Source of the DNA: Minisyncoccota bacterium
GTDB taxonomy: Bacteria; Patescibacteriota; Minisyncoccia; UBA6257; JAGOQP01
Reading direction: 5' to 3'
DNA: 64,000 nucleotides
Assembly (NCBI GenBank): GCA_017991375.1
Contig: JAGOQP010000004.1
Span: forward strand, 6,499-70,498
Position 1 is the stretch's first letter; each line of letters begins with the position of its first letter. Under the pieces are notes generated by a model. It was not told the DNA's origin, did no database searches, and saw nothing but the letters and a program-made list of their open reading frames with translations. Position numbers and translations under genes: made by a program. Shown here in pieces: positions 311-36,500 of this stretch.

Positions 311-1027
311 TTATCCACGATACTTTCGGCGTATATAGTTAAGTTCTATTTCAAGTAATTCTTTTGCGCTCGTAATGATTGACTTAAGCACATGGACACG
401 CGAATCATCATCATGCGCCCACTCGACTCCCATTTGTTTAATGGGAATATGCTTTTTATGCGCGATAAAAAGAAGCTCTGTATCAAATCCCCACCGGTCA
501 ATGCGCGCCACTGGAAAAATTTTTTGCGCGGCCGGCCGAGAAAAACATTTAAACCCACAAGTAAAATCTTTTATTCCAGGAACAAGCATGTTGGAAAGTA
601 GTGTAAACCCCTGGCCAAGCATCGTTCTTACAGACGACTCATATTTTTGAATGTGTGATTCAGCAAGACGTCTGCTTCCAATAATAACCTGGTCGTCCTT
701 CTCCATAATAGAGCGCAGGTGATCAAACTCCTTAAGCGGCGTCGCCAAATCAATATCAAAAAACACAATCCAATCCCCTGTCGCCGCGGCAACACCTTGT
801 CTTACCGCGTATCCTTTTCCACGATTATGTTCATACGATACCACGCGTATGTTTCCTTTTTTCTGATAGGGCTGCAAAACATCAAGCGTTTTATCTGTTG
901 ATCCATCATTAACGAAGATAACCTCAGTATCCACTGATTGTTTGGCAAAAAAATCACAAATAGCGTCAATGCTTTTGGGGATGCGACGTTCTTCGTTATA
1001 TACGGGAATAACTATTGAGAATTTCAT
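311..1027 (-). CDS. GT2 glycosyltransferase, polyprenol/dolichol-phosphate mannose synthase (DPM1/Ppm1)-like
   Basis: 238 aa. The N-terminus FSIVIPVYNEE...VIFVNDGSTD..YEHNRGKGYA...FFDIDL is the classic GT-A fold of GT2 enzymes, with a DxD-like motif. The size and motifs match Dpm1-type polyprenyl-phosphate sugar synthases. Confidence 0.75.
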   Translation of the reverse strand: MKFSIVIPVYNEERRIPKSIDAICDFFAKQSVDTEVIFVNDGSTDKTLDVLQPYQKKGNIRVVSYEHNRGKGYAVRQGVAAATGDWIVFFDIDLATPLKEFDHLRSIMEKDDQVIIGSRRLAESHIQKYESSVRTMLGQGFTLLSNMLVPGIKDFTCGFKCFSRPAAQKIFPVARIDRWGFDTELLFIAHKKHIPIKQMGVEWAHDDDSRVHVLKSIITSAKELLEIELNYIRRKYRG

Positions 1028-1030
1028 ATA

Positions 1031-3154
1031 CTAACGCGCCAGCGCTTGTTCTATGCTTTTTATACGCGCGCGTACAACTTCAAGACGCCGCGCATCCCCT
1101 TTTTTGGCAATAAATGGCTCTAATTGTTTATACACATCAAGCGTTGCTCTGTCTGTTCCTCGAGTAAACGCGGGAAGAGTAAACGCTTTTTCCATAAGGT
1201 CAATCACTTGTTCAATGGGTGGATCTTGGCGGGTGAGGAGCACCGCCGCCAAAAAGAAATACGAATTACCCACGCGTGGATTTAACTCAATTGTTTCTTT
1301 AAGTAATTGCTCTGCCTTTTCATGTTCGCCTACAAGCGCCAACGTATATCCATAATAATATCGTGTATCCTGACGCTTTGGAGCAAGCGTGAGCGCCTTT
1401 TCGTAGTACACTAACGATTGGTCCATATATTTCATGTTATTAGTTGCCTGGCCCAACGCCGCGTAGGTTTGCGCGACCACGGTAAATGCTCTTGGGTTGT
1501 ATGGTTCTCGTTGAGCGAGCTCCTCGGTCGCCTGCAATACACGGATGAATATCTTATTAACCTCTTCGTTTTTCCCCACATACTGTTGAAGCGCGCCGAG
1601 CAAGCTTTGTCTAATATCTTGTTGCGCGTATGTATAGGGCTCAAGCATGCTATCCAAACTTTCTTTCATAACTTGAACGGTTGTCGAACCACTAAGCTTA
1701 TTAAGCGTTACCCGCATTTGAGCATACGCGACACAAGACATCACAAACACAATCGCGAAAAAAATTCCCACTGACGCAATAATAACAGTGAGCCCAACAC
1801 CGTTACGCGCGTGTTCGTGATGATCAATGGGCACCGCCTCTTTTTCTTTTTCGCTCTGGGCGTTCCACAATAGCGCGCCAAACGCGATGAACACAAAAAA
1901 TGGAATGTATGTTGAAACGGACTCAAAAACAAAAAGATTTTGGATAAAATATGCTACCCCAAAAAAAGTAATCGCCCCCGTTTCAATGCTGAGCGGACGT
2001 CGTAGTACCACCCACACCAGGAATACCCACAACGCAAGATATGCCACGAGCCCAAGCACGCCATTCATAACCGCAACGTCCATTAACTTATTATGCGCGC
2101 GATCAAACCAGTTTTGTTCAAACTCAAAATATTTCGGATTGTAATACTTATTATACGCAACTGAAAAATTTTCAGGACCCCAACCAGTAAGAAACTTTAC
2201 CGGCCCATTAGTAATGGGGTTGAGCGCCCGCGCGCTCACGCCAAGTGAAATTAAACGTGTCTGTAATGTGGGATCATTAAATGAAGCGGCCGCGAGACGA
2301 TCTATTCCTGGAATTTTTTTCCAAAACGCATCCGATTTAGTTAGAAGAAACACTACCGAGAGCATAATAACGAGTCCCACGATAACCAGTGCTATTTTTT
2401 TAAGATGCCATCTACCAAACAACATTCGATCACCCGATTTGACCGCCATAATAAGCGCCGCCACCGCAAGTCCAGCGCCCATACCAATCATCACACCACG
2501 CGTTTGAGAGACCAAAATACCCACCAGAGAGAGTGGGAGCATCGCCCATGCGACAAGGTGCCACTTACTCCCTCGCTCACCAATAACCATAAGCGCCGCG
2601 AATATAGTAAAGAGAAAAAGAATGGCAATATATATTGGGTTTCCAGTAAATGAACTTGGACGCGCCTGCCCGAGCGACAGCCACTGATACATTTGATTAA
2701 TAAAGAGAACGCCACCGGTAATCAGAGAGAGCTTGCAAAACATAAGCCAATCTTTTTTCGCAAACACCAGCATACCAAGCAAGAAAAATCCAAAAAAGAA
2801 TGACATCCCGAGCAATCCTTCCGCGCGCTCGATGTCTCCAAAAAAGGCACGGAATGTATTTACCGCGGTGAGCGTGCTTACAATATAGACCACAAAAAAC
2901 GCCGTTACTGAAATAACAATGGGATTTTTTTTGATTTGAGAAAAACGTTCGGCGATTTCTTTTCTGAACGCGTTGTTTGCCATCGCGTATCCCGCACACA
3001 AAAGCGTCGCAACCATAACCAATATTTTTATGGCCATGCTTTTGCCGGTAATATATGGGAAGAACACCCCCGAATCGACGATGAGTGGAACAAACGCAAG
3101 GAGCAATAAACTCCATACTATAGCTCGTTTCATATGGTATAGATAATAGAACAA
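1031..3154 (-). CDS. polytopic membrane protein with O-antigen-ligase (Wzy_C)-like core and C-terminal TPR repeats
   Basis: 707 aa with about 12 predicted TM helices and a large periplasmic-type loop, typical of WaaL/O-antigen ligase-like proteins. The C-terminal ~250 aa contain repeated TPR-like helices (AYYYGYTLALVGEHEKAEQLLKETIELNP...). This architecture is common in CPR glycosylation loci. Confidence 0.6.
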   Translation of the reverse strand: MFYYLYHMKRAIVWSLLLLAFVPLIVDSGVFFPYITGKSMAIKILVMVATLLCAGYAMANNAFRKEIAERFSQIKKNPIVISVTAFFVVYIVSTLTAVNTFRAFFGDIERAEGLLGMSFFFGFFLLGMLVFAKKDWLMFCKLSLITGGVLFINQMYQWLSLGQARPSSFTGNPIYIAILFLFTIFAALMVIGERGSKWHLVAWAMLPLSLVGILVSQTRGVMIGMGAGLAVAALIMAVKSGDRMLFGRWHLKKIALVIVGLVIMLSVVFLLTKSDAFWKKIPGIDRLAAASFNDPTLQTRLISLGVSARALNPITNGPVKFLTGWGPENFSVAYNKYYNPKYFEFEQNWFDRAHNKLMDVAVMNGVLGLVAYLALWVFLVWVVLRRPLSIETGAITFFGVAYFIQNLFVFESVSTYIPFFVFIAFGALLWNAQSEKEKEAVPIDHHEHARNGVGLTVIIASVGIFFAIVFVMSCVAYAQMRVTLNKLSGSTTVQVMKESLDSMLEPYTYAQQDIRQSLLGALQQYVGKNEEVNKIFIRVLQATEELAQREPYNPRAFTVVAQTYAALGQATNNMKYMDQSLVYYEKALTLAPKRQDTRYYYGYTLALVGEHEKAEQLLKETIELNPRVGNSYFFLAAVLLTRQDPPIEQVIDLMEKAFTLPAFTRGTDRATLDVYKQLEPFIAKKGDARRLEVVRARIKSIEQALAR

Positions 3155-3337
3155 AAATAAGAATTAAGAAAGAACGGGCACCACGGTATAAATCAACACA
3201 TACTCACTCGCCAAGATATTTTTAGATATCTATATTAAAATAGCAAATTGGTTTTTCTATTATTGACAAACCACCCCATCCAATGTAACGTATAATCGCG
3301 CACTTTGACACAAAGGAAAAAGGAAAGGAGAAGCGCG

Positions 3338-4033
3338 ATGATCAGCAAAGAAAGACATATCGCACTATCATGGAGGATTCCTCTGTTGGTTGGTATGCTC
3401 ACGGGCCTATTTCTTCTTGCACGGTACTTTGTTGCCGGATACATCCCAGGCCTTGCGCCGTATACCCTCAATCCCTTGGGAAGGGTACACAATCTGGCAA
3501 CCACAACACACATGCATGTTTCACCTCCCTCAAGTTGGTTTTATGTTCTTTCTCTCCCAGTGTTCACGTTTTTGTTCATCACATTTCTTCCAATAATAAG
3601 ACATGAGACAGGCCGAGAGAGACCTTGTCGAGGTGGGATCCGCGCTGGTTTGTGTGTGGCGACCATATCTTTTTTGCTCTCACTTGCGTACTGGACTACC
3701 TGCATTGGCTCTAGTGCGCAAATTACACCTCAAGATCTTTTTACTCTCTCTATCTTCTTTTTCACCTTGGCTGGTGTTTCTATACTATCTATCACGAATA
3801 TGATTGAATTGTTCACCGAATCTTCAGGAGAGATTTTTCGCTTTTTTTTCGGGTATGCTATCGGATCTGGGTTTATTGCCGATTTCGTCCTTGGGATTTC
3901 TTATGGGCTCGGGGTCACCGCGCTTATAAGTATCTTAGGGGCTGGAGTAATGTACGCGTCATGTGGAATCGGCCACGTTGTCAGACGTTGCCCTCCACGA
4001 ATATTCCAGTGGTTCCTTGCCACTGACAAGTAG
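3338..4033 (+). CDS. hypothetical polytopic membrane protein
   Basis: The track ORF is 3305..4033. The ATG at 3338 (MISKERHIALSW...) is preceded by aaggaaaggag, a good Shine-Dalgarno sequence, so the start was moved. Several hydrophobic segments; no recognisable family. Confidence 0.45.
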   Translation: MISKERHIALSWRIPLLVGMLTGLFLLARYFVAGYIPGLAPYTLNPLGRVHNLATTTHMHVSPPSSWFYVLSLPVFTFLFITFLPIIRHETGRERPCRGGIRAGLCVATISFLLSLAYWTTCIGSSAQITPQDLFTLSIFFFTLAGVSILSITNMIELFTESSGEIFRFFFGYAIGSGFIADFVLGISYGLGVTALISILGAGVMYASCGIGHVVRRCPPRIFQWFLATDK

Positions 4034-4053
4034 AGCTCACACCGCACACTTCC

Positions 4054-4085
4054 ACGACTCGTCCTCCGACGAGTCGTTTTTGTTT
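4054..4085 (+). terminator. Rho-independent terminator after the 3338..4033 gene
   Basis: acgactcgtc-ctcc-gacgagtcgt is a perfect 10-bp stem with a 4-nt loop, followed by ttttgttt. Confidence 0.6.
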
Positions 4086-4239: not shown

Positions 4240-5604
4240 CTATATCCCATACGTAATCGTCGCCAATTGAATAAATTGCCACACGACGATCAGAAAAAAG
4301 AAAACAACGACTATTGGATATTTTAAGAACCATTTCCCAAGCATCCACGCCAAAAGAATAACCAGGCACAATAAAGACGGAAAGTAGTGGTATAAAAATG
4401 CCACGCGAGCGATAGCAGTGTATGCCAAAAGATTCACCCAGTACCCAAACATCAAAAAGAGTACCGCCCACGCCTCGGTGGTCATTCTTTTTTCGCGCGT
4501 TGTCTTGATAACAAACCACAGCAGCGCCCAGAAAAACGCACCCACCCCCGCGTACCAAATAATTTCATTCCCATGAAGATACATCGTTGGTGTACGAGGT
4601 GTCCCAAAGGGTCCGAGCCAATAGTAGATAGGCTTTATGCCAAACGGCCATTGATACCATGCTGAACTTTCGGTATGAGGAGCGGTTAAATCACGATTAT
4701 AGGTAAACATTTTCTCATTGAGCTCAACGATTTTGTAGAGCATGTTCTGTGGAACAAAATCATTGGTGTGATAGTATTCATTTCCTACTAATGTCGCGCG
4801 AAACGGCCCCGTCATATATACATCACCTGTCCCACTCAGCGGAAGAAGCGCTAAATGAAGCCAGCACCAGAACATATAGACACCAACAGCACATAGTGCC
4901 AAAAGCGTCCCCAGTCCAAGCATTATTAGACGCTTTCCTTTTCTCGCGATAATATCAGCAAGAACTACCACCCCCGCGAGGCCGATAAAAAATACCCCTG
5001 TCATTTTGACGCTTGCAGCACATCCCACCAAAACACCCGCGACAACATAAAGGGCGATTTTTGACCATTTCCGCTCGCGCGTTCGCGCGAGCCATAATAT
5101 CCACAACCCCGCAATACCAAAAAGAAGTAAAAAAATATCCATGAGCGCCAGCCGCGATTGCGTAAGTAGCGCGTTATCAAAAATAACCAAAAGTCCAGAG
5201 AAAAACGCTACGCTCTTTTTTTTAAAAAGCTGATACGAAAACGCGTACATCGCTAGCACTAACAACACTCCCGCAACGCTCACCGCGGCACGATACGCTT
5301 TATAGGAATTATCCGTATACTGCTGACCAATTTTGGTAAAGGTAAACGATGTGTTTGGTTCGTGCCCTGCTATGAGCGCGGCACCAGCCATCACCAATTT
5401 GGCAAGAGGAGGATGTATATCAAAATAATACTTTCCATCGAAATAGCGATCGGTAAATTGAGCAAAGTGAAATTCGTCAAACACAATTTGATCAGGATAC
5501 CCAAACGCAAAAAAACGAGTAGCCACAGCGAGAAACAAAAGCACTATCAGCAATGTATAGTGATTAGAAAACAAAGAGGCACACCGCGTGCAAAATTTTT
5601 TCAT
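4240..5604 (-). CDS. PMT-family (GT39) protein O-mannosyltransferase / phospholipid-carrier-dependent glycosyltransferase
   Basis: The track ORF begins with a TTG at 5655; the first ATG (MKKFCTRC) is at 5602-5604. It has many TM helices, and the first periplasmic loop carries FDEFHF...DIHPPLAKL, the conserved DE and HPPL(G/A)K motifs of Pmt / ArnT-like GT-C enzymes. Confidence 0.7.
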   Translation of the reverse strand: MKKFCTRCASLFSNHYTLLIVLLFLAVATRFFAFGYPDQIVFDEFHFAQFTDRYFDGKYYFDIHPPLAKLVMAGAALIAGHEPNTSFTFTKIGQQYTDNSYKAYRAAVSVAGVLLVLAMYAFSYQLFKKKSVAFFSGLLVIFDNALLTQSRLALMDIFLLLFGIAGLWILWLARTRERKWSKIALYVVAGVLVGCAASVKMTGVFFIGLAGVVVLADIIARKGKRLIMLGLGTLLALCAVGVYMFWCWLHLALLPLSGTGDVYMTGPFRATLVGNEYYHTNDFVPQNMLYKIVELNEKMFTYNRDLTAPHTESSAWYQWPFGIKPIYYWLGPFGTPRTPTMYLHGNEIIWYAGVGAFFWALLWFVIKTTREKRMTTEAWAVLFLMFGYWVNLLAYTAIARVAFLYHYFPSLLCLVILLAWMLGKWFLKYPIVVVFFFLIVVWQFIQLATITYGI

Positions 5605-5648
5605 ACGAATATAGTATAGCAAACACGAGAGAAAATTATGGCGCAACA

Positions 5649-5683
5649 AAACCAAAACGACCCGTTAAGGGTCGTTTTGGTTT
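5649..5683. terminator. perfect hairpin (15-bp stem) between the two minus-strand genes
   Basis: aaaccaaaacgaccc-gttaa-gggtcgttttggttt. The stem ends in a U-rich run on both strands. It lies directly downstream of the stop of the 5733..7595 gene. Confidence 0.5.
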
Positions 5684-5732
5684 CGCGTGCCTCTTTGTGT
5701 TAAACAAGAAGCTCGCTGGCTTTAGCCATGCA

Positions 5733-8134: not shown

Positions 8135-8974
8135 TTACGCCGTCTTTTGTTTCTTAATACGCAAGAATGATTTAGGGCCACCCGTCCCTACTCGTTCAAT
8201 AATCTTCTTATCAACTAATCGTTGGATATCATACCTCAATGTCCGGTCACTAATCCCTGGAAGTATGTCTTGGATGTCTTTTATGTGGCATAATGTGCGC
8301 TTTTTTAACAAATCAACAATCATCTCCTGTCTTTCAGAAAAATATGCCGCTTTTGGTATTTCATCTACACTTTTGGCCATACTTATTGCCGGACTTTTTT
8401 GTGTCTCTGTTATTTTGGCAGTGTTTATGCCGTCTTTTTCAATATTCTCATTGCCGGACTTTTTATCTTCTTTTATATATGTTGCCGGACTTTTTTGCGA
8501 TGCGTCTATATCAATAGATTTTACGCCACTATTTATCATTTTCTCATTGCCGGACTTTTGTGCTTTTGTTTTCACTTCTTCATCTTTCTCTTCGGATATG
8601 TGCGCAATCATTTTCGCGAACTCCGAAAATATCATAGGTGGTTTTGAAAACATTTCTTCTATAAGAATTCTTTCTTTGCTCCCCTTAGCAACTGTTTCCG
8701 CTTTCTCATACACCATATCCGAGAGGGTTTTTTTAAGCCCGTTTATTTCCCTGAGCAAAACCCCCGCATTGACACTACTTATTTCCCCCACCTCTTGGGT
8801 CAAGCGAACAGCATATTCAAGTTCAGCTAAGGTATCTACCGTTTTTGACCCCATATACGAAAGTGCGACATCTTCAAGATACTTTTGGAGCTGTGGACGA
8901 GAAATATGGGCCGCCACTCGGAACACGGCCCACACCACCTCAAACGATCGTTGTTTAAAAAAATCTGAGGGCAT
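8135..8974 (-). CDS. DNA-binding protein with C-terminal DeoR-type winged-helix HTH and internal short peptide repeats
   Basis: The C-terminus ERQEMIVDLLKKRTLCHIKDIQDILPGISDRTLRYDIQRLVDKKIIERVG is a typical DeoR/wHTH domain. The middle region has repeated KSGNE / QKSPA peptides, encoded by a 4x DNA repeat (ttgccggacttt). The overlapping plus-strand ORF 7983..8981 is low-complexity antisense. Confidence 0.5.
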   Translation of the reverse strand: MPSDFFKQRSFEVVWAVFRVAAHISRPQLQKYLEDVALSYMGSKTVDTLAELEYAVRLTQEVGEISSVNAGVLLREINGLKKTLSDMVYEKAETVAKGSKERILIEEMFSKPPMIFSEFAKMIAHISEEKDEEVKTKAQKSGNEKMINSGVKSIDIDASQKSPATYIKEDKKSGNENIEKDGINTAKITETQKSPAISMAKSVDEIPKAAYFSERQEMIVDLLKKRTLCHIKDIQDILPGISDRTLRYDIQRLVDKKIIERVGTGGPKSFLRIKKQKTA

Positions 8975-9060
8975 AAGATGATCATTAATCGTTAACTATT
9001 AACAACAGGACTGATACTAAAGTACTCTTTGAACGATAACCTCATGCTGATAAACCAGTA

Positions 9061-9541
9061 AAACAAATACTTTTAGGAAGCGGGAAGGTGGGCAAACCAC
9101 CTTCCCATATTTGAACAGAAGCTTCTTACTCTTTTCTTCCTCGAGCGCTTTACAGACCACGATGTATTCAAGATCGTCCGTAGCCTCCGGCTCGTGAAGA
9201 AGTATTGAAAGAGCTTTGGCCTAGTTCGCTGTCGGCTATGACTTGGGTTGGTTTGTTGGTGGCACTTTTGCCTTTTCCTTGTCTGACGTGCCAGCTTCCG
9301 CCTGCGAAATTTCTGGCATATGAAGTCGCATGCCGGTCACGACATCGAGCCCGCCGCTCAAGCTGCACAGACAGGTAAAGCGACCGTGGTCGTCTTGTGG
9401 GAACATTTCTGCCCCACACCGAGGGCATGTCGGCCCGCGCCCATGACGACGCATGTACTGATCAGTTTCATCCCAGTACCCCATGCGACACCTCCTTTGT
9501 TTTGTTATTAGTTTTGAAGCTTCCTAAAAGTACTTGTTTTA
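9061..9541. mobile_element. IR-bounded GC-rich insertion (MITE/IS-remnant-like)
   Basis: The left end aaaacaaatacttttaggaagc (9061..9082) and the right end gcttcctaaaagtacttgtttt (9520..9541) are inverted repeats with 21/22 matches. The interior is about 55% GC against a ~40% background. A strong hairpin, gggaaggtgg-gcaaa-ccaccttccc, sits just inside the left IR. Confidence 0.4.
9236..9484 (-). CDS. small zinc-ribbon-like protein carried on the IR-bounded GC-rich element
   Basis: 82 aa: MGYWDETDQYMRRHGRGPTCPRCGAEMFPQDDHGRFTCLCS..., with a CxxC ... CxC arrangement. A strong SD (aaggaggt) sits 5 nt upstream of the ATG on the minus strand. GC-rich codon usage is unlike the neighbouring genes. 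Confidence 0.45.
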   Translation of the reverse strand: MGYWDETDQYMRRHGRGPTCPRCGAEMFPQDDHGRFTCLCSLSGGLDVVTGMRLHMPEISQAEAGTSDKEKAKVPPTNQPKS

Positions 9542-9840
9542 AAGAGCAATGCATCAAATAACTACCCCACTTGCCACATACACACCCTTCCGTAGTCCAC
9601 CACGGATGGACGTAGAGGGTCCACCCCGGGCCCGTCGAAGAACTACACGCTATCTGCCATAAGCTTATTAGACACGCGCTACATTACCCCTACCATAGAG
9701 CCGATAAAAATAGAAGTCAAGGCATAGCGTATAAGTAACATAAAAGAGCGCCATTTCATCGTTGTGTTATTGTAAAAAATCAATACTCTTTTTTCTTATC
9801 CTATTCTCTCTCCTCTCTATACACACCCTTCATCACCCAT

Positions 9841-9878
9841 TTGACCCCTTTTTTCACGATCGTGAAAAAAGGGGTCAA
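9841..9878. repeat. 38-bp perfect palindrome, copy 1 (TTGACCCCTTTTTTCACGATCGTGAAAAAAGGGGTCAA)
   Basis: Exact palindrome. It has the 5' flank tcatcacccat, which is shared with copy 3. It lies about 50 nt upstream of a TGnTATACT extended -10. Confidence 0.9.
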
Positions 9879-9918
9879 TCATACACTTCTATAAGTTATC
9901 AACACTCATATACATTTT

Positions 9919-10040
9919 TGTGATATACTTTTTAGTATCATGAGAACATTGGCAGAAAATGGTGCGCGCGCCAACACGGTGTGTCAGACATACGTGACCC
10001 CGTAGCATGTTAACGTTCCGCCCCGATGGGCGGTTTTTGT
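9919..10040 (+). ncRNA. candidate small transcript / leader: extended -10 promoter (tgaTATACT, 9921..9929) to intrinsic terminator (10018..10040)
   Basis: A TGnTATACT extended -10 element is followed about 100 nt later by ccgccc-cgat-gggcgg plus tttttgtt. The transcript would contain a 22-codon ORF (MRTLAENGARANTVCQTYVTP*) with no SD. It ends 50 nt before the 10092 gene. Confidence 0.3.
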
Positions 10041-10091
10041 TAATAAAGTCACGCCTCCATTCACTGCTCTATTATAAGTAACACAACATAT

Positions 10092-10661
10092 ATGTTTGAA
10101 GGCGCACAACAAAGCGGAGTCGCTCCGCTATCGCCCACTCCGCAATCACAAACAAAACGATTGTGGAAATTTGTCGGCATGTTTGTCGGGATTATCATTA
10201 TCGCCGCAGGTATTTATTACGGATGGGAGTATTATCTAAGCCCATCGGCGCGCGGGCGCATAGATGCCAGCACTATGCAAAAAAACTACGAACAATTTGC
10301 GCAACAAAAAGCTCAATATGAAGAAGCGATGAAGAACGATACTTATGGAGGGAAAACACCAGAGGAAACGCTTTCTCTGTTTATTTCAGCCCTTGAAAAA
10401 GGCGATGTCGATTTGGCAAGTAGATATTTTCTTATAGGAGAGAAAATTAGCCAGAGCGAATGGCGCGACGGCATACAAAAAATGAAGGACGCAGCACAGT
10501 TGGGATTTATAATAAATGATATAAAGTCATCTGAATTATTGGAAAGGTCGGAAATGCTTAATTACGCAATATTTAGAACAACAAATAAGGAATCGGGGCC
10601 TCATGACATATCGCTTAAACTCAATACGTATTCAAATATTTGGAAAATAGAAAGTTTATAG
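10092..10661 (+). CDS. hypothetical membrane-anchored protein (single N-terminal TM)
   Basis: 189 aa with one N-terminal TM segment (FVGMFVGIIIIAAGIYYGW) and a soluble C-terminal domain. No recognisable motif. It is probably co-transcribed with the nuclease gene. Confidence 0.5.
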   Translation: MFEGAQQSGVAPLSPTPQSQTKRLWKFVGMFVGIIIIAAGIYYGWEYYLSPSARGRIDASTMQKNYEQFAQQKAQYEEAMKNDTYGGKTPEETLSLFISALEKGDVDLASRYFLIGEKISQSEWRDGIQKMKDAAQLGFIINDIKSSELLERSEMLNYAIFRTTNKESGPHDISLKLNTYSNIWKIESL

Positions 10662-15419: not shown

Positions 15420-15457
15420 TTGACCCCTTTTTTCACGATCGTGAAAAAAGGGGTCAA
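15420..15457. repeat. 38-bp perfect palindrome, copy 2
   Basis: Identical to copy 1 over all 38 bp. It lies between the nuclease stop (15363) and the 15528 gene. Confidence 0.9.
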
Positions 15458-16129: not shown

Positions 16130-16167
16130 TTGACCCCTTTTTTCACGATCGTGAAAAAAGGGGTCAA
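16130..16167. repeat. 38-bp perfect palindrome, copy 3
   Basis: Identical 38 bp plus the shared 5' flank tcatcacccat, as in copy 1. It lies 39 nt after the stop of the 15528..16091 gene. Confidence 0.9.
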
Positions 16168-35599: not shown

Positions 35600-36500
35600 C
35601 ACCGATCAACGCAGATTGTATGCAGTGCATTAAAATTTATAAAAAAATCAGCCCCGCTCCCGACGAATCGGGAATAGGGCTAAGGGTTCAAACCAAAGGG
35701 ATTGAAGTCCCGAGGGTCTTAGGATTGAGAGCTGACCTGTGTGTCCTCCGTAGCTTACGCGGAGGTGGACGACACGGCGAACGCGAACCCGTCGCCACGA
35801 GGCCACCTGACGCCAGGCCAGCCGTCGTATGCGCTGAGCCAGCGACCAGCGCCGTTACGGCGCGCGCCCAGCAAGCTCGGATCGCCTTCGGAGTTGTTGA
35901 TGGGCTCGTGCATGGCAACGATCGACCGCAGACCCATTGCTTCGATCTCCTCGTCCGTGAACTTCTCGCGGATGAGGCATGCGAGTTCGGCGTTGGGCTT
36001 TATGAGCTTGCGTATGAATGCATACATCCGAATGCTCCACGTGGTCCGATCGTTGTCCTCAAAGAGCATACCCTTGAGAATGGCCACCTGGGTGGTCACG
36101 CCGCTGGTCGGCGTGAAGTATGGGCTTTGGAGCACCCGCTTGGCGTAGTCATCCACCCGAAAGCCCTTGAGTCGGGTGATCCACTCCTCGCCGGTCGTGC
36201 CGTCCGAAGTGACGGAGAAGTAGATGATGCCGTCTTCCTCGCGCCACGGGTGGGGTGGTTCGCACACCACAATCTCGCCGCGGAGAAAACGGAGCGCCAT
36301 GTCGTGGCCACCGAGCTTCTTGACGATGGCGTTGAGTTGGCCGGCAGTGAGGCCGGCTGATGCGAATTCTCTACTCATAGTTATCTCTCCCTTCCTTGGG
36401 GTGTTTTTCTCCTCTACGCCGAGGAGGCACTATGAGCTGGGTATAGTCATAGCAAGATGGGGCCTATGAGATAAGCCACATATTGCTATGACTATATGCG
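35600..36500. other. GC-rich (>60% GC) compositional island in a ~40% GC genome
   Basis: The composition shifts abruptly at about 35600 and about 36420. The island's single gene uses GC3-rich codons. A 13-bp-stem hairpin (36443..36495) lies at the right edge, and a hairpin plus T-run lies at the left edge (about 35650..35690). Confidence 0.6.
35755..36378 (-). CDS. hypothetical protein (207 aa) encoded on GC-rich island
   Basis: MSREFASAGLTAGQLNAIVKKLGGHDMALRFLRGEIVVCEPPHPWREEDGIIYFSVTSDG... is a complex globular sequence. A good SD (ggaagggagag) sits 6 nt upstream. The overlapping plus-strand ORF 35620..36360 is Arg/Ala/Gly-rich antisense. Confidence 0.6.
   Translation of the reverse strand: MSREFASAGLTAGQLNAIVKKLGGHDMALRFLRGEIVVCEPPHPWREEDGIIYFSVTSDGTTGEEWITRLKGFRVDDYAKRVLQSPYFTPTSGVTTQVAILKGMLFEDNDRTTWSIRMYAFIRKLIKPNAELACLIREKFTDEEIEAMGLRSIVAMHEPINNSEGDPSLLGARRNGAGRWLSAYDGWPGVRWPRGDGFAFAVSSTSA

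Follow-up and report, generated by a model that had tools for sequence, protein, structure and literature searches.

The window, the whole 64-kb stretch of DNA that was analysed, is an ordinary segment of a bacterial chromosome that carries genes for FtsK, HtrA, phosphoglucomutase, a PMT-type mannosyltransferase and a histidine kinase. It also contains an inverted repeat, with AAAACAAATACTTTTAGGAAGC at 9060-9081 on the plus strand and its near-complement at 9519-9540 (21/22 positions, or 22/23 with one more base, 9059-9081 against 9519-9541). The arm motif occurs twice in the window and in none of 100 dinucleotide shuffles of it. A sequence-only reading had reported 22-bp repeats with 21/22 identity at 9061..9082 and 9520..9541; the repeats are real and both coordinate pairs were one base too high. 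The same reading described a GC-rich interior, which is indeed richer than its surroundings, but at 52.2% (9082-9518) rather than about 55% and on a window background of 43.2% rather than about 40%. The ORF in the interior, reconstructed to its ancestral extent, reaches 54%. The hairpin with a 10-bp stem and a 5-nt loop that had been placed against the left repeat was recovered (Table 1).

The single ORF between the repeats encodes 82 amino acids and has the features that the sequence-only reading had given it, a strong Shine-Dalgarno sequence (GGAGG, ending 6 nt ahead of the ATG) and a CPRC...CLC arrangement of cysteines (C20-P-R-C23 and C38-L-C40). The gene is not intact, however, but a truncated version of a family of about 121 amino acids. 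Searching 5.8 billion proteins returned 28 relatives, nearly all of them about 121 aa long and none with a Pfam domain, and the residues CxxC...DDHGRF.C.C are invariant among them. Only sub-threshold matches to Zn-ribbons were returned for the 82-aa protein and a 121-aa homologue by Pfam, PHROGs and NCBIfam. Beyond two in-frame TAG codons, both at positions where the homologues have Glu, the reading frame still aligns with the homologues' C-termini. The ancestral stop codon at 9122-9124 is now AAG, and the frame continues through the hairpin and the arm to 9017. The tail that lies past the TAG codons carries substitutions at strongly conserved positions, which include the nearly invariant R79 and the GP and PEY motifs of most members. 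Recoding or readthrough of TAG was considered and rejected, because TAG is a normal stop in the window, where it ends 9 of the 44 long ORFs, and because the conserved C-terminal positions are substituted. The truncation is not an assembly error either, since the identical 82-aa product was found on four contigs from different samples. By its sequence, the window gene is a pseudogene-like fragment, a broken gene of about 121 codons that would at best now yield an 82-aa Zn-ribbon fragment. Among the cassette cargos described below, the Zn-ribbon family has five members counting the window copy, and the member at locus L071 is likewise broken.

The repeats do not mark the ends of the unit. Loci that share the arms and carry unrelated genes match the window in just two blocks, ~9563->9488 and ~9125->9025, and we therefore delimit the unit as 9023..9562 on the minus strand (Table 1). 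Conserved sequence thus extends past both arms, by 22 nt on one side and about 36 nt on the other. At the 5' end, the unit starts with GTTAT, and homology with L009, L106, L043, L054, L056, L124 and L127 begins at 9562-9564. At the 3' end, many loci stop matching the window at 9023-9025, and an nhmmer profile of the 3' flank matches it only at 9108->9024. Profiles of the two conserved flanks match the window at E = 1e-8 and 2e-14. The gene directly downstream of the unit (8135-8974) encodes a DeoR-HTH protein; it starts 48 nt beyond the unit's 3' end.

Table 1. Parts of the unit in the window, in the order in which they are read on the minus strand.
Feature	Position	Strand	Remarks
GTT core	G at 9562	(-)	5' boundary of the cassette; homology with L009 and with cassettes of unrelated cargo begins at 9562-9564
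5' outer arm GTTATTTGATGCATTGCTCTTT	9541..9562	(-)	diverged from the family consensus GTTATCGGAAATATTGCTCTTTT
5' inner arm AAAACAAGTACTTTTAGGAAGC (right inverted repeat)	9519..9540	(-)	22-mer found upstream of 30 unrelated cargo families
CA-rich leader	9485..9518	(-)	Shine-Dalgarno GGAGG at 9491-9495
Present ORF, 82 aa	9236..9484	(-)	N-terminal Zn-ribbon part (CxxC...DDHGRF.C.C); ends at in-frame TAG 9236-9238
Decayed C-terminal part of the ancestral ORF	9122..9235	(-)	second in-frame TAG at 9221-9223
GC hairpin GGGAAGGTGG-5 nt-CCACCTTCCC	9082..9106	(-)	abuts the 3' arm; conserved element of the frame
3' inner arm GCTTCCTAAAAGTATTTGTTTT on the gene strand (left inverted repeat)	9060..9081	(-)	partner of the 5' arm in the predicted fold of the transcript
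Small variable hairpin region and first 8 nt of the 3' outer arm (AAAGAGTA)	9023..9059	(-)	family homology ends here

The repeat does recur elsewhere, a point on which the sequence-only reading had staked its case for a mobile element. Scanning 185,579 species genomes for AAACAARTAYTTTTAGGAAGC identified 25 stretches, and a metagenome scan for the arm motif 97. In both sets the matches lie mostly in plus/minus pairs, 220-1170 nt apart. From these we extracted 74 units, in each of which an arm pair flanks one ORF and a GC hairpin that lies directly at the 3' arm. Among the 73 usable cargos there are 30 unrelated families, of which only one, a radical SAM enzyme, has a Pfam match. Around these cargos the flanks form a constant, AT-rich frame, while the GC content of the cargo ranges from 31 to 54%. 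The frame opens with GTTATCGG...TTGCTCTTTT and the 5' inner arm (in full, the consensus outer arm GTTATCGGAAATATTGCTCTTTT followed by the inner arm), and continues with a CA-rich leader of 13-58 nt that closes in a Shine-Dalgarno-like motif, mostly GGAGG, ahead of the ATG. After the ORF come (TA)GCTTCC.., the hairpin (GGGRA...TYCCC in the 74 cassettes, with stem sequences that vary between them), the inverted inner arm, a variable hairpin of 0-31 nt and the inverted outer arm AAAAGAGCAATACATCCGATAAC, so that the 3' end reads as GC hairpin and 3' arm, then AAAAGAGC...CCGATAAC. The outer arm consists of the GTT core and 23 nt, the inner arm has 22 nt, and the inverted outer arm ends in ..AAC. 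The window copy has the same layout, with an arm pair in plus/minus orientation around one ORF, the Shine-Dalgarno sequence at the 5' arm and the GC hairpin at the 3' arm. Its closest intact homologue, at L009, aligns with 9563->9023 as a 541-nt block at 78.5% identity, within which the arms are identical at 43 of 44 positions; the neighbours of the L009 copy (a recombinase gene, fmt, def and hisS) are unrelated to those in the window. Judged by this homology of the frame, the window unit almost certainly belongs to the conserved-frame cassette family.

The layout of integron attC sites was found in the relatives, at L009, at L037 and in 18 distinct units downstream of frame cassettes. In many relatives, cassettes of this and other types form co-oriented arrays. 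One array, at L037, has at least six cassettes on the same strand, whose cargos include NUDIX and HIT proteins, a 70-aa frame cassette and others. Each of them starts with GTTxxxx and ends in its own complement, xxxxAAC, with four core types represented (GTTGTCGG, GTTCAACG, GTTGTGCG and GTTATCGG). The units between cassettes are imperfect palindromes of ~100-130 nt, in which AAC, 1 nt, an 11-bp L'' box, a Y-shaped tip, an 11-bp L' box, 3-4 nt and GTT follow each other. At L037 the L''/L' sequence is specific to the unit and stays with the upstream cassette whichever cassette comes next, which places the junction at GTT, as in integrons. For the same reason, we rejected a crossover halfway along the inter-cassette unit, by which the units would have become elements with long terminal inverted repeats. 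The L box is a perfect 11 bp in 34 of 48 units, among which there are 33 distinct L'' sequences; its structure is kept while its sequence varies freely. A one-base bulge is present in some units (such as that from A to B in L037), with no systematic bulge among the 48. A crude detector of this layout found 178 attC-like units in the real loci compared to 22 in shuffled loci. With DNA parameters, folding favoured the bottom strand in each of the 18 distinct units next to frame cassettes mentioned above, and the mean difference was -2.5 kcal/mol. A bias of this kind towards the bottom strand is reported for attC sites (PMC5027507).

At L009 the cassette adjoins a divergently transcribed gene for a tyrosine recombinase of 274 aa. 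Homologues of the protein, 42-64% identical over the full length, are encoded in more than 15 other loci, a count that leaves out two weaker partial matches and comes from loci fetched for the arm motif only. The recombinases beside arrays have 271-274 aa, and at least six distinct loci have a frame cassette whose start lies ~100-140 nt from the divergent gene. The combination of divergent recombinase, attI-like region and co-oriented array was found at L009, L043, L052, L106, L122 and L127. Different cassette types follow the attI-like region, the sequence of which is conserved (..TTCGCATAAyAyACAA..~45 nt..TTCGCATATAAACnA|GTT). The recombinase aligns with archaeal XerA in one collinear stretch (5hxy, 148.7 bits) and with Vibrio cholerae IntI4 in two (145.1 bits), which leave IntI4 residues 183-244 unmatched. 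The NCBIfam integron integrase model TIGR02249 likewise matches in two stretches (212.8 bits, cutoff 265), and the XerA model NF040815 scores 218.7 bits at a cutoff of 220. By these alignments, the recombinase lacks the IntI-specific domain that defines integron integrases (PMC9668308, PMC4792948, PMC8138268). The scarcity of extrahelical bases in the L boxes is in keeping with such a protein. The recombinase is possibly a dedicated cassette integrase of ancestral type, or else possibly the Xer of candidate-phyla bacteria (the 'Cand' group, PMC8138268). Because both are possible, we call the system integron-like rather than an integron.

Recombination sequences of the pdif type are dif-like, double-strand sites of about 28 bp. 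If the units described here were modules of that sort, a host Xer-type recombinase would exchange them as double-stranded DNA at dif-like sites. The affinity of the adjacent recombinase to XerA points in this direction, as does its want of the insertion that IntI uses to handle folded attC sites (PMC4792948). Xer-related 'Cand' recombinases of candidate phyla are on record (PMC8138268), and the recombinase could be their housekeeping Xer that merely sits near the arrays. Further, units bounded by inverted sequences recall the pdif modules of Acinetobacter (PMC7399989). Like IMEX elements, these lack their own integrase and exploit Xer-family tyrosine recombinases, and the pdif modules are small groups of genes with recombination sequences in inverse orientation at their ends. 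Yet the sites in our loci are long folded palindromes of ~100-130 nt in which the sequence of the 11-bp stem varies and the pairing stays, the arrays are co-oriented with a recombinase gene adjoining them, and by eye the AAC|GTT junctions do not resemble dif-type palindromes with their 11-6-11 layout. Also against Xer modules are the systematically greater stability of the bottom strand, the complementarity of each cassette's own ends around AAC/GTT, as in integron cassettes, and the position at L009 of recombinase and cassettes between fmt and def, where they look like an inserted platform. We consider this alternative unlikely.

As read from their sequences, the features of the relatives together reproduce the intI-attI-cassette geometry of an integron. 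Like the cassettes and attC sites of integrons, including CALIN and cassettes at secondary sites (PMC4889954, PMC5027507), the units comprise a single, mostly small ORF of usually unknown function, they are co-oriented in arrays, and their first bases complement their own end. The sites share with attC the imperfect palindrome with AAC...GTT boxes, the asymmetric unpaired spacer, a variable but paired L box, a variable tip and the more stable bottom strand (PMC5027507), and the arrays share with integrons a divergent tyrosine recombinase and a conserved attI-like junction, ...A|GTT. Several features set the system apart. The recombinase is without the IntI-specific domain, the L boxes are mostly perfect 11-bp helices without extrahelical bases, the unpaired spacer has 1 nt on one side against 3-4 nt on the other, and the tip is Y-shaped. 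This subfamily of cassettes also adds an inverted repeat of ~45 nt inside each end, together with its own leader, Shine-Dalgarno sequence and hairpin. The hosts appear to be small-genome bacteria of candidate phyla; complete integrons are reported to be absent from very small genomes (Cury et al., 2016, PMC4889954). Judging from the anatomy of the cassettes, the family quite probably moves by site-specific recombination at GTT.

The window copy departs from its relatives in having no attC-like site. It kept the GTT core at its 5' boundary and a diverged 5' outer arm, and lost all but the first bases of the 3' outer arm and with them the 3' partner of the core; the complementarity of a cassette's own ends is seen at L037 for all four core types. 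Beyond 9023 there is no R'' (..CCGATAAC), L box or attC-like site, nor is there one nearby in the window, and the gene has acquired two premature TAG codons and lost its stop. Searches of the 64-kb window with nhmmer, the attC detector and recombinase homologues found the one copy of the frame and no second copy, attC-like unit or recombinase homologue; the sole match of the detector, at 5566-5705, is an unrelated nested palindrome. The feature is likely a solitary, decayed cassette of an integron-like system. Since in such a system the recombinase would excise and insert cassettes at the G|TT junction, as in integrons, with the folded bottom strand of the attC-like site as the putative substrate, the window copy would be what is left of an earlier insertion into an ordinary chromosome and could no longer move. 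Of 64 cassettes, about 15 likewise stand alone and stop right after the 3' inner arm, without a 3' outer arm; the mobility part has therefore been lost repeatedly while the inner arms were kept.

Bacterial MITEs with functional ends, such as the Correia elements of Neisseria, ERIC and RUP, are short, have inverted ends and are transcribed, and they can form RNA duplexes that affect the stability or processing of neighbouring messages. They are usually non-coding, carry their repeats at their true ends, produce target-site duplications and are moved by transposases. The sequence-only reading had interpreted the locus as an acquired element of this kind or an IS remnant, and one part of that interpretation holds: the unit is discrete, horizontally acquired and derived from a mobile element. 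Were it a non-autonomous, IS-derived transposon, the 22-nt repeats would be terminal inverted repeats, a transposase would act in trans and the gene would be a passenger. It is true that a short unit lies between inverted arms that have diverged far less than the cargo, that the solitary copies, at ordinary chromosomal sites, end at the 3' inner arm, and that a single MAG can contain several copies (L036/L037 and L030/L041). But the arms are not the unit's ends, as in the relatives conservation continues for up to ~45 nt outside them and on to an attC-like site, and the frame is asymmetric, as the Shine-Dalgarno sequence invariably lies by the 5' arm and the GC hairpin by the 3' arm. The target-site duplication that had been suggested as a check was found at neither candidate boundary (no direct repeats at 9059/9541 or 9023/9562), and the 5' boundary is instead the GTT core. 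Co-oriented copies stand in arrays by a tyrosine recombinase, no transposase was seen with the cassettes, and the 64-kb window has a single copy. None of these hallmarks, non-coding nature, terminal repeats, target-site duplication and transposase, was seen for the cassette unit, and a transposon is distinctly improbable here, although the solitary cassettes make a second, arm-bounded mode of spread conceivable.

The inner arms may have a role in the transcript. Complementarity between the two arms extends to 1435 of 1518 positions in 69 distinct cassettes, a high figure that is partly built in, because cassettes were chosen by the match of both arms to one consensus. Transition mismatches that can form G.T number 45 for the sense strand and only 12 for the antisense strand. 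At arm position 11, the 49 distinct arm pairs have C-G (20), U-G (20), U-A (8) and C-A (1), states that read as a classical compensatory path via a wobble pair on the sense strand. Counting pairs, 96.6% of cells were paired and 5 pairs had changed on both sides, which none of 500 shuffles reached, in a test that kinship among the cassettes inflates; once the partners were slid against each other, pairing fell to ~50%. Variant arms also stay complementary, as in cassettes A and E of L037 (GCTCAC/GTGAGC in the latter) and in L067 (AGGGGA/TCCCCT). The strand bias of the arms is opposite to that of the attC-like units and of canonical attC sites (PMC5027507), which points to sense RNA and not to a recombining DNA strand.

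Consistent with this, the predicted fold of the window transcript encloses the whole ORF between the paired arms, next to which the GC hairpin stacks, in the minimum-energy and the centroid structures alike, and its z-score is -6.9 (-4.4 for L009). We propose that the sense transcript would fold with its two inner arms paired, so that the ORF is enclosed by a stem on which the GC hairpin stacks, and that the duplex probably insulates, stabilises or processes the mRNA of each cassette. The early mRNAs of phage T7 are messages bracketed by stems and processed by RNase III. They offer an analogy for the function of the arms only, in that complementary flanks of a cistron form a duplex that defines and stabilises a monocistronic RNA; unlike the intercistronic hairpins of T7, the duplex predicted for the cassettes spans the whole ORF. 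On these models, we put the chances that the arms act in RNA at about even. The bias towards wobble pairs on the sense strand suggests a built-in RNA device by which each cassette would be expressed autonomously; the usual description of integron cassettes is that of promoterless passengers (PMC5027507).

The arms could instead be signals that belong to the particular gene, a promoter or operator at the 5' arm and a terminator formed by the hairpin and 3' arm, with their inversion due to chance or to a palindromic regulator such as the DeoR-type neighbour. The fixed distance of the 5' arm from the Shine-Dalgarno sequence would suit this, as would a possible promoter (TTGCTC-17 nt-TAGGAA, read by eye) that overlaps the 5' arm, the position of the hairpin after the ORF and the DeoR-HTH gene directly downstream. 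Against it, the same arms surround 30 unrelated cargo families with unrelated neighbours, the 3' arm is conserved as strongly as the 5' arm and covaries with it, no U-tract follows the hairpin, and a scan for promoters and terminators found no site at the arms. A gene-specific regulatory origin of the repeats is thus highly improbable.

Taken by itself, the window feature is of modest interest, since it is a cassette that was acquired horizontally, is now dead and lies in an ordinary chromosome; the family is the more interesting subject. A search of the accessible literature on integrons, cassettes and tyrosine recombinases in Patescibacteria and candidate phyla returned no description of it, an absence that is not proof of novelty. 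It is a tentative proposal, and one that we hold with some doubt, that the loci represent an undescribed integron-like system of small genomes of the candidate-phyla type, with attC-like arrays, a recombinase without the IntI-specific domain, a frame around at least 30 ORFs and arms that serve as a self-insulating mRNA stem. Arrays served by such a recombinase could represent a 'proto-integron' state, and attC-like arrays beside it would make the transition from Xer to IntI testable (PMC4792948). Furthermore, the ORFs, at least 30 of them unrelated and of differing GC content, appear to have entered a cassette frame that already existed, an observation of relevance to the unsolved origin of integron cassettes. 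A mechanism of cassette genesis should leave regularities such as a conserved frame that fits 30 unrelated ORFs precisely.

The surroundings of the window copy offer no sign of a larger acquired region. The sequence-only reading had extended the acquisition to the whole 9-16 kb stretch, but the neighbouring genes are at background GC and nothing was found in support. The 34-nt palindromes that bracket the module nearby are a repeat of another kind and occur in none of the 139 related loci. A metagenome scan with the DeoR-type neighbour returned no relatives of that gene, and no empty site was found. Rfam searches, at the gathering threshold for the whole window and at an E-value threshold for 8900-10150, and a tRNA scan gave nothing relevant. 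A structured RNA or attC remnant in 9542-9780 was rejected, since this region folds no better than its shuffles (z = -0.5 and -0.7). By eye, a stretch near 9752-9775, for which the nhmmer match was not significant, weakly resembles an outer arm.

In the locus with the closest intact homologue (L009), the divergent tyrosine recombinase and two cassettes, about 2 kb, lie between fmt and def (positions 551-4061). Because these two genes are usually neighbours, the arrangement suggests that the entire small recombinase-cassette platform was itself inserted. Several solitary cassettes are sharply delimited at the 3' end (L021, L027, L035, L038, L093, L111 and L135), where the following host gene begins its coding sequence just 10-20 nt (to the start codon) past the 3' inner arm, with neither an outer arm nor an attC-like site (the palindrome separating cassettes in arrays) after that arm. 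That copies repeatedly stop so abruptly at the arm's U-rich tail could be due to deletion, to another way of spreading or to copying whose limit was set by the end of a transcript. Exact 21-nt matches to the arms (L018-L042) were found in metagenome-assembled genomes (MAGs) labelled Patescibacteria, Moraniibacteria, Falkowbacteria and Saccharibacteria and also in those labelled Bdellovibrionales, Gammaproteobacteria, Flavobacteriaceae and Nanoarchaeota. The breadth of these labels reflects either cross-phylum exchange of cassettes or binning errors.

The Zn-ribbon cargo family, whose broken member sits in the window cassette, seems prone to breakage and recombination. One frame cassette (L081, 816-1171) encodes a 79-aa protein that fuses a different N-terminus to the C-terminal half of the family (..GMSDQQKAEIPLINRLN..), and a further truncated copy of 76 aa carries a long untranslated tail (L071, 333-833). 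In L003, and also in L004-L007, a Zn-ribbon homologue (P0008) lies between direct repeats of ~110 nt rather than between the arms. Each repeat copy contains the palindrome AAAACAAGCTTAnnnnAGCTTGTTTT followed by TTTACT-17 nt-TAGGAT/TAGAAT, an arrangement that looks like a duplicated operator-promoter. The only stretch that it has in common with the cassette arms is AAAACAAG.

The perfect 34-nt palindromes of the window are unrelated to the cassette frame. They enclose genes for a 189-aa protein and a 1552-aa LTD/SNase protein, and a PaaX_M/Cas2-like gene, and identity between the copies at 9830 and 16119 extends with the flanks to 49 nt. No copy was found in the window beyond the three tabulated, nor in any of 139 related loci. 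The nested intergenic palindrome was flagged by a crude attC detector, yet it is unlike the cassette sites. A second GC-rich island (window 35700-36380, ~60% GC vs 43%) is probably another acquired gene; it lacks the cassette-frame arms, and the plus-strand ORF overlapping its 207-aa ORF had no Pfam match.

Coordinates of repeats, palindromes and the island ORF
Feature	Location	Strand	Details
Perfect palindrome, 34 nt, three identical copies	window 9843-9876, 15422-15455, 16132-16165		GACCCCTTTTTTCACGATCGTGAAAAAAGGGGTC
Nested intergenic palindrome	window 5566-5705		AAACAAAGAGGCAC...GTGCCTCTTTGTGTT around terminator-like hairpin AAAACCAAAACGACCC-GTTAA-GGGTCGTTTTGGTTT
207-aa ORF in GC-rich island	window 35755..36378	minus	own SD
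Direct repeat copies (~110 nt) flanking P0008	L003 5848-5960 and 6530-6640
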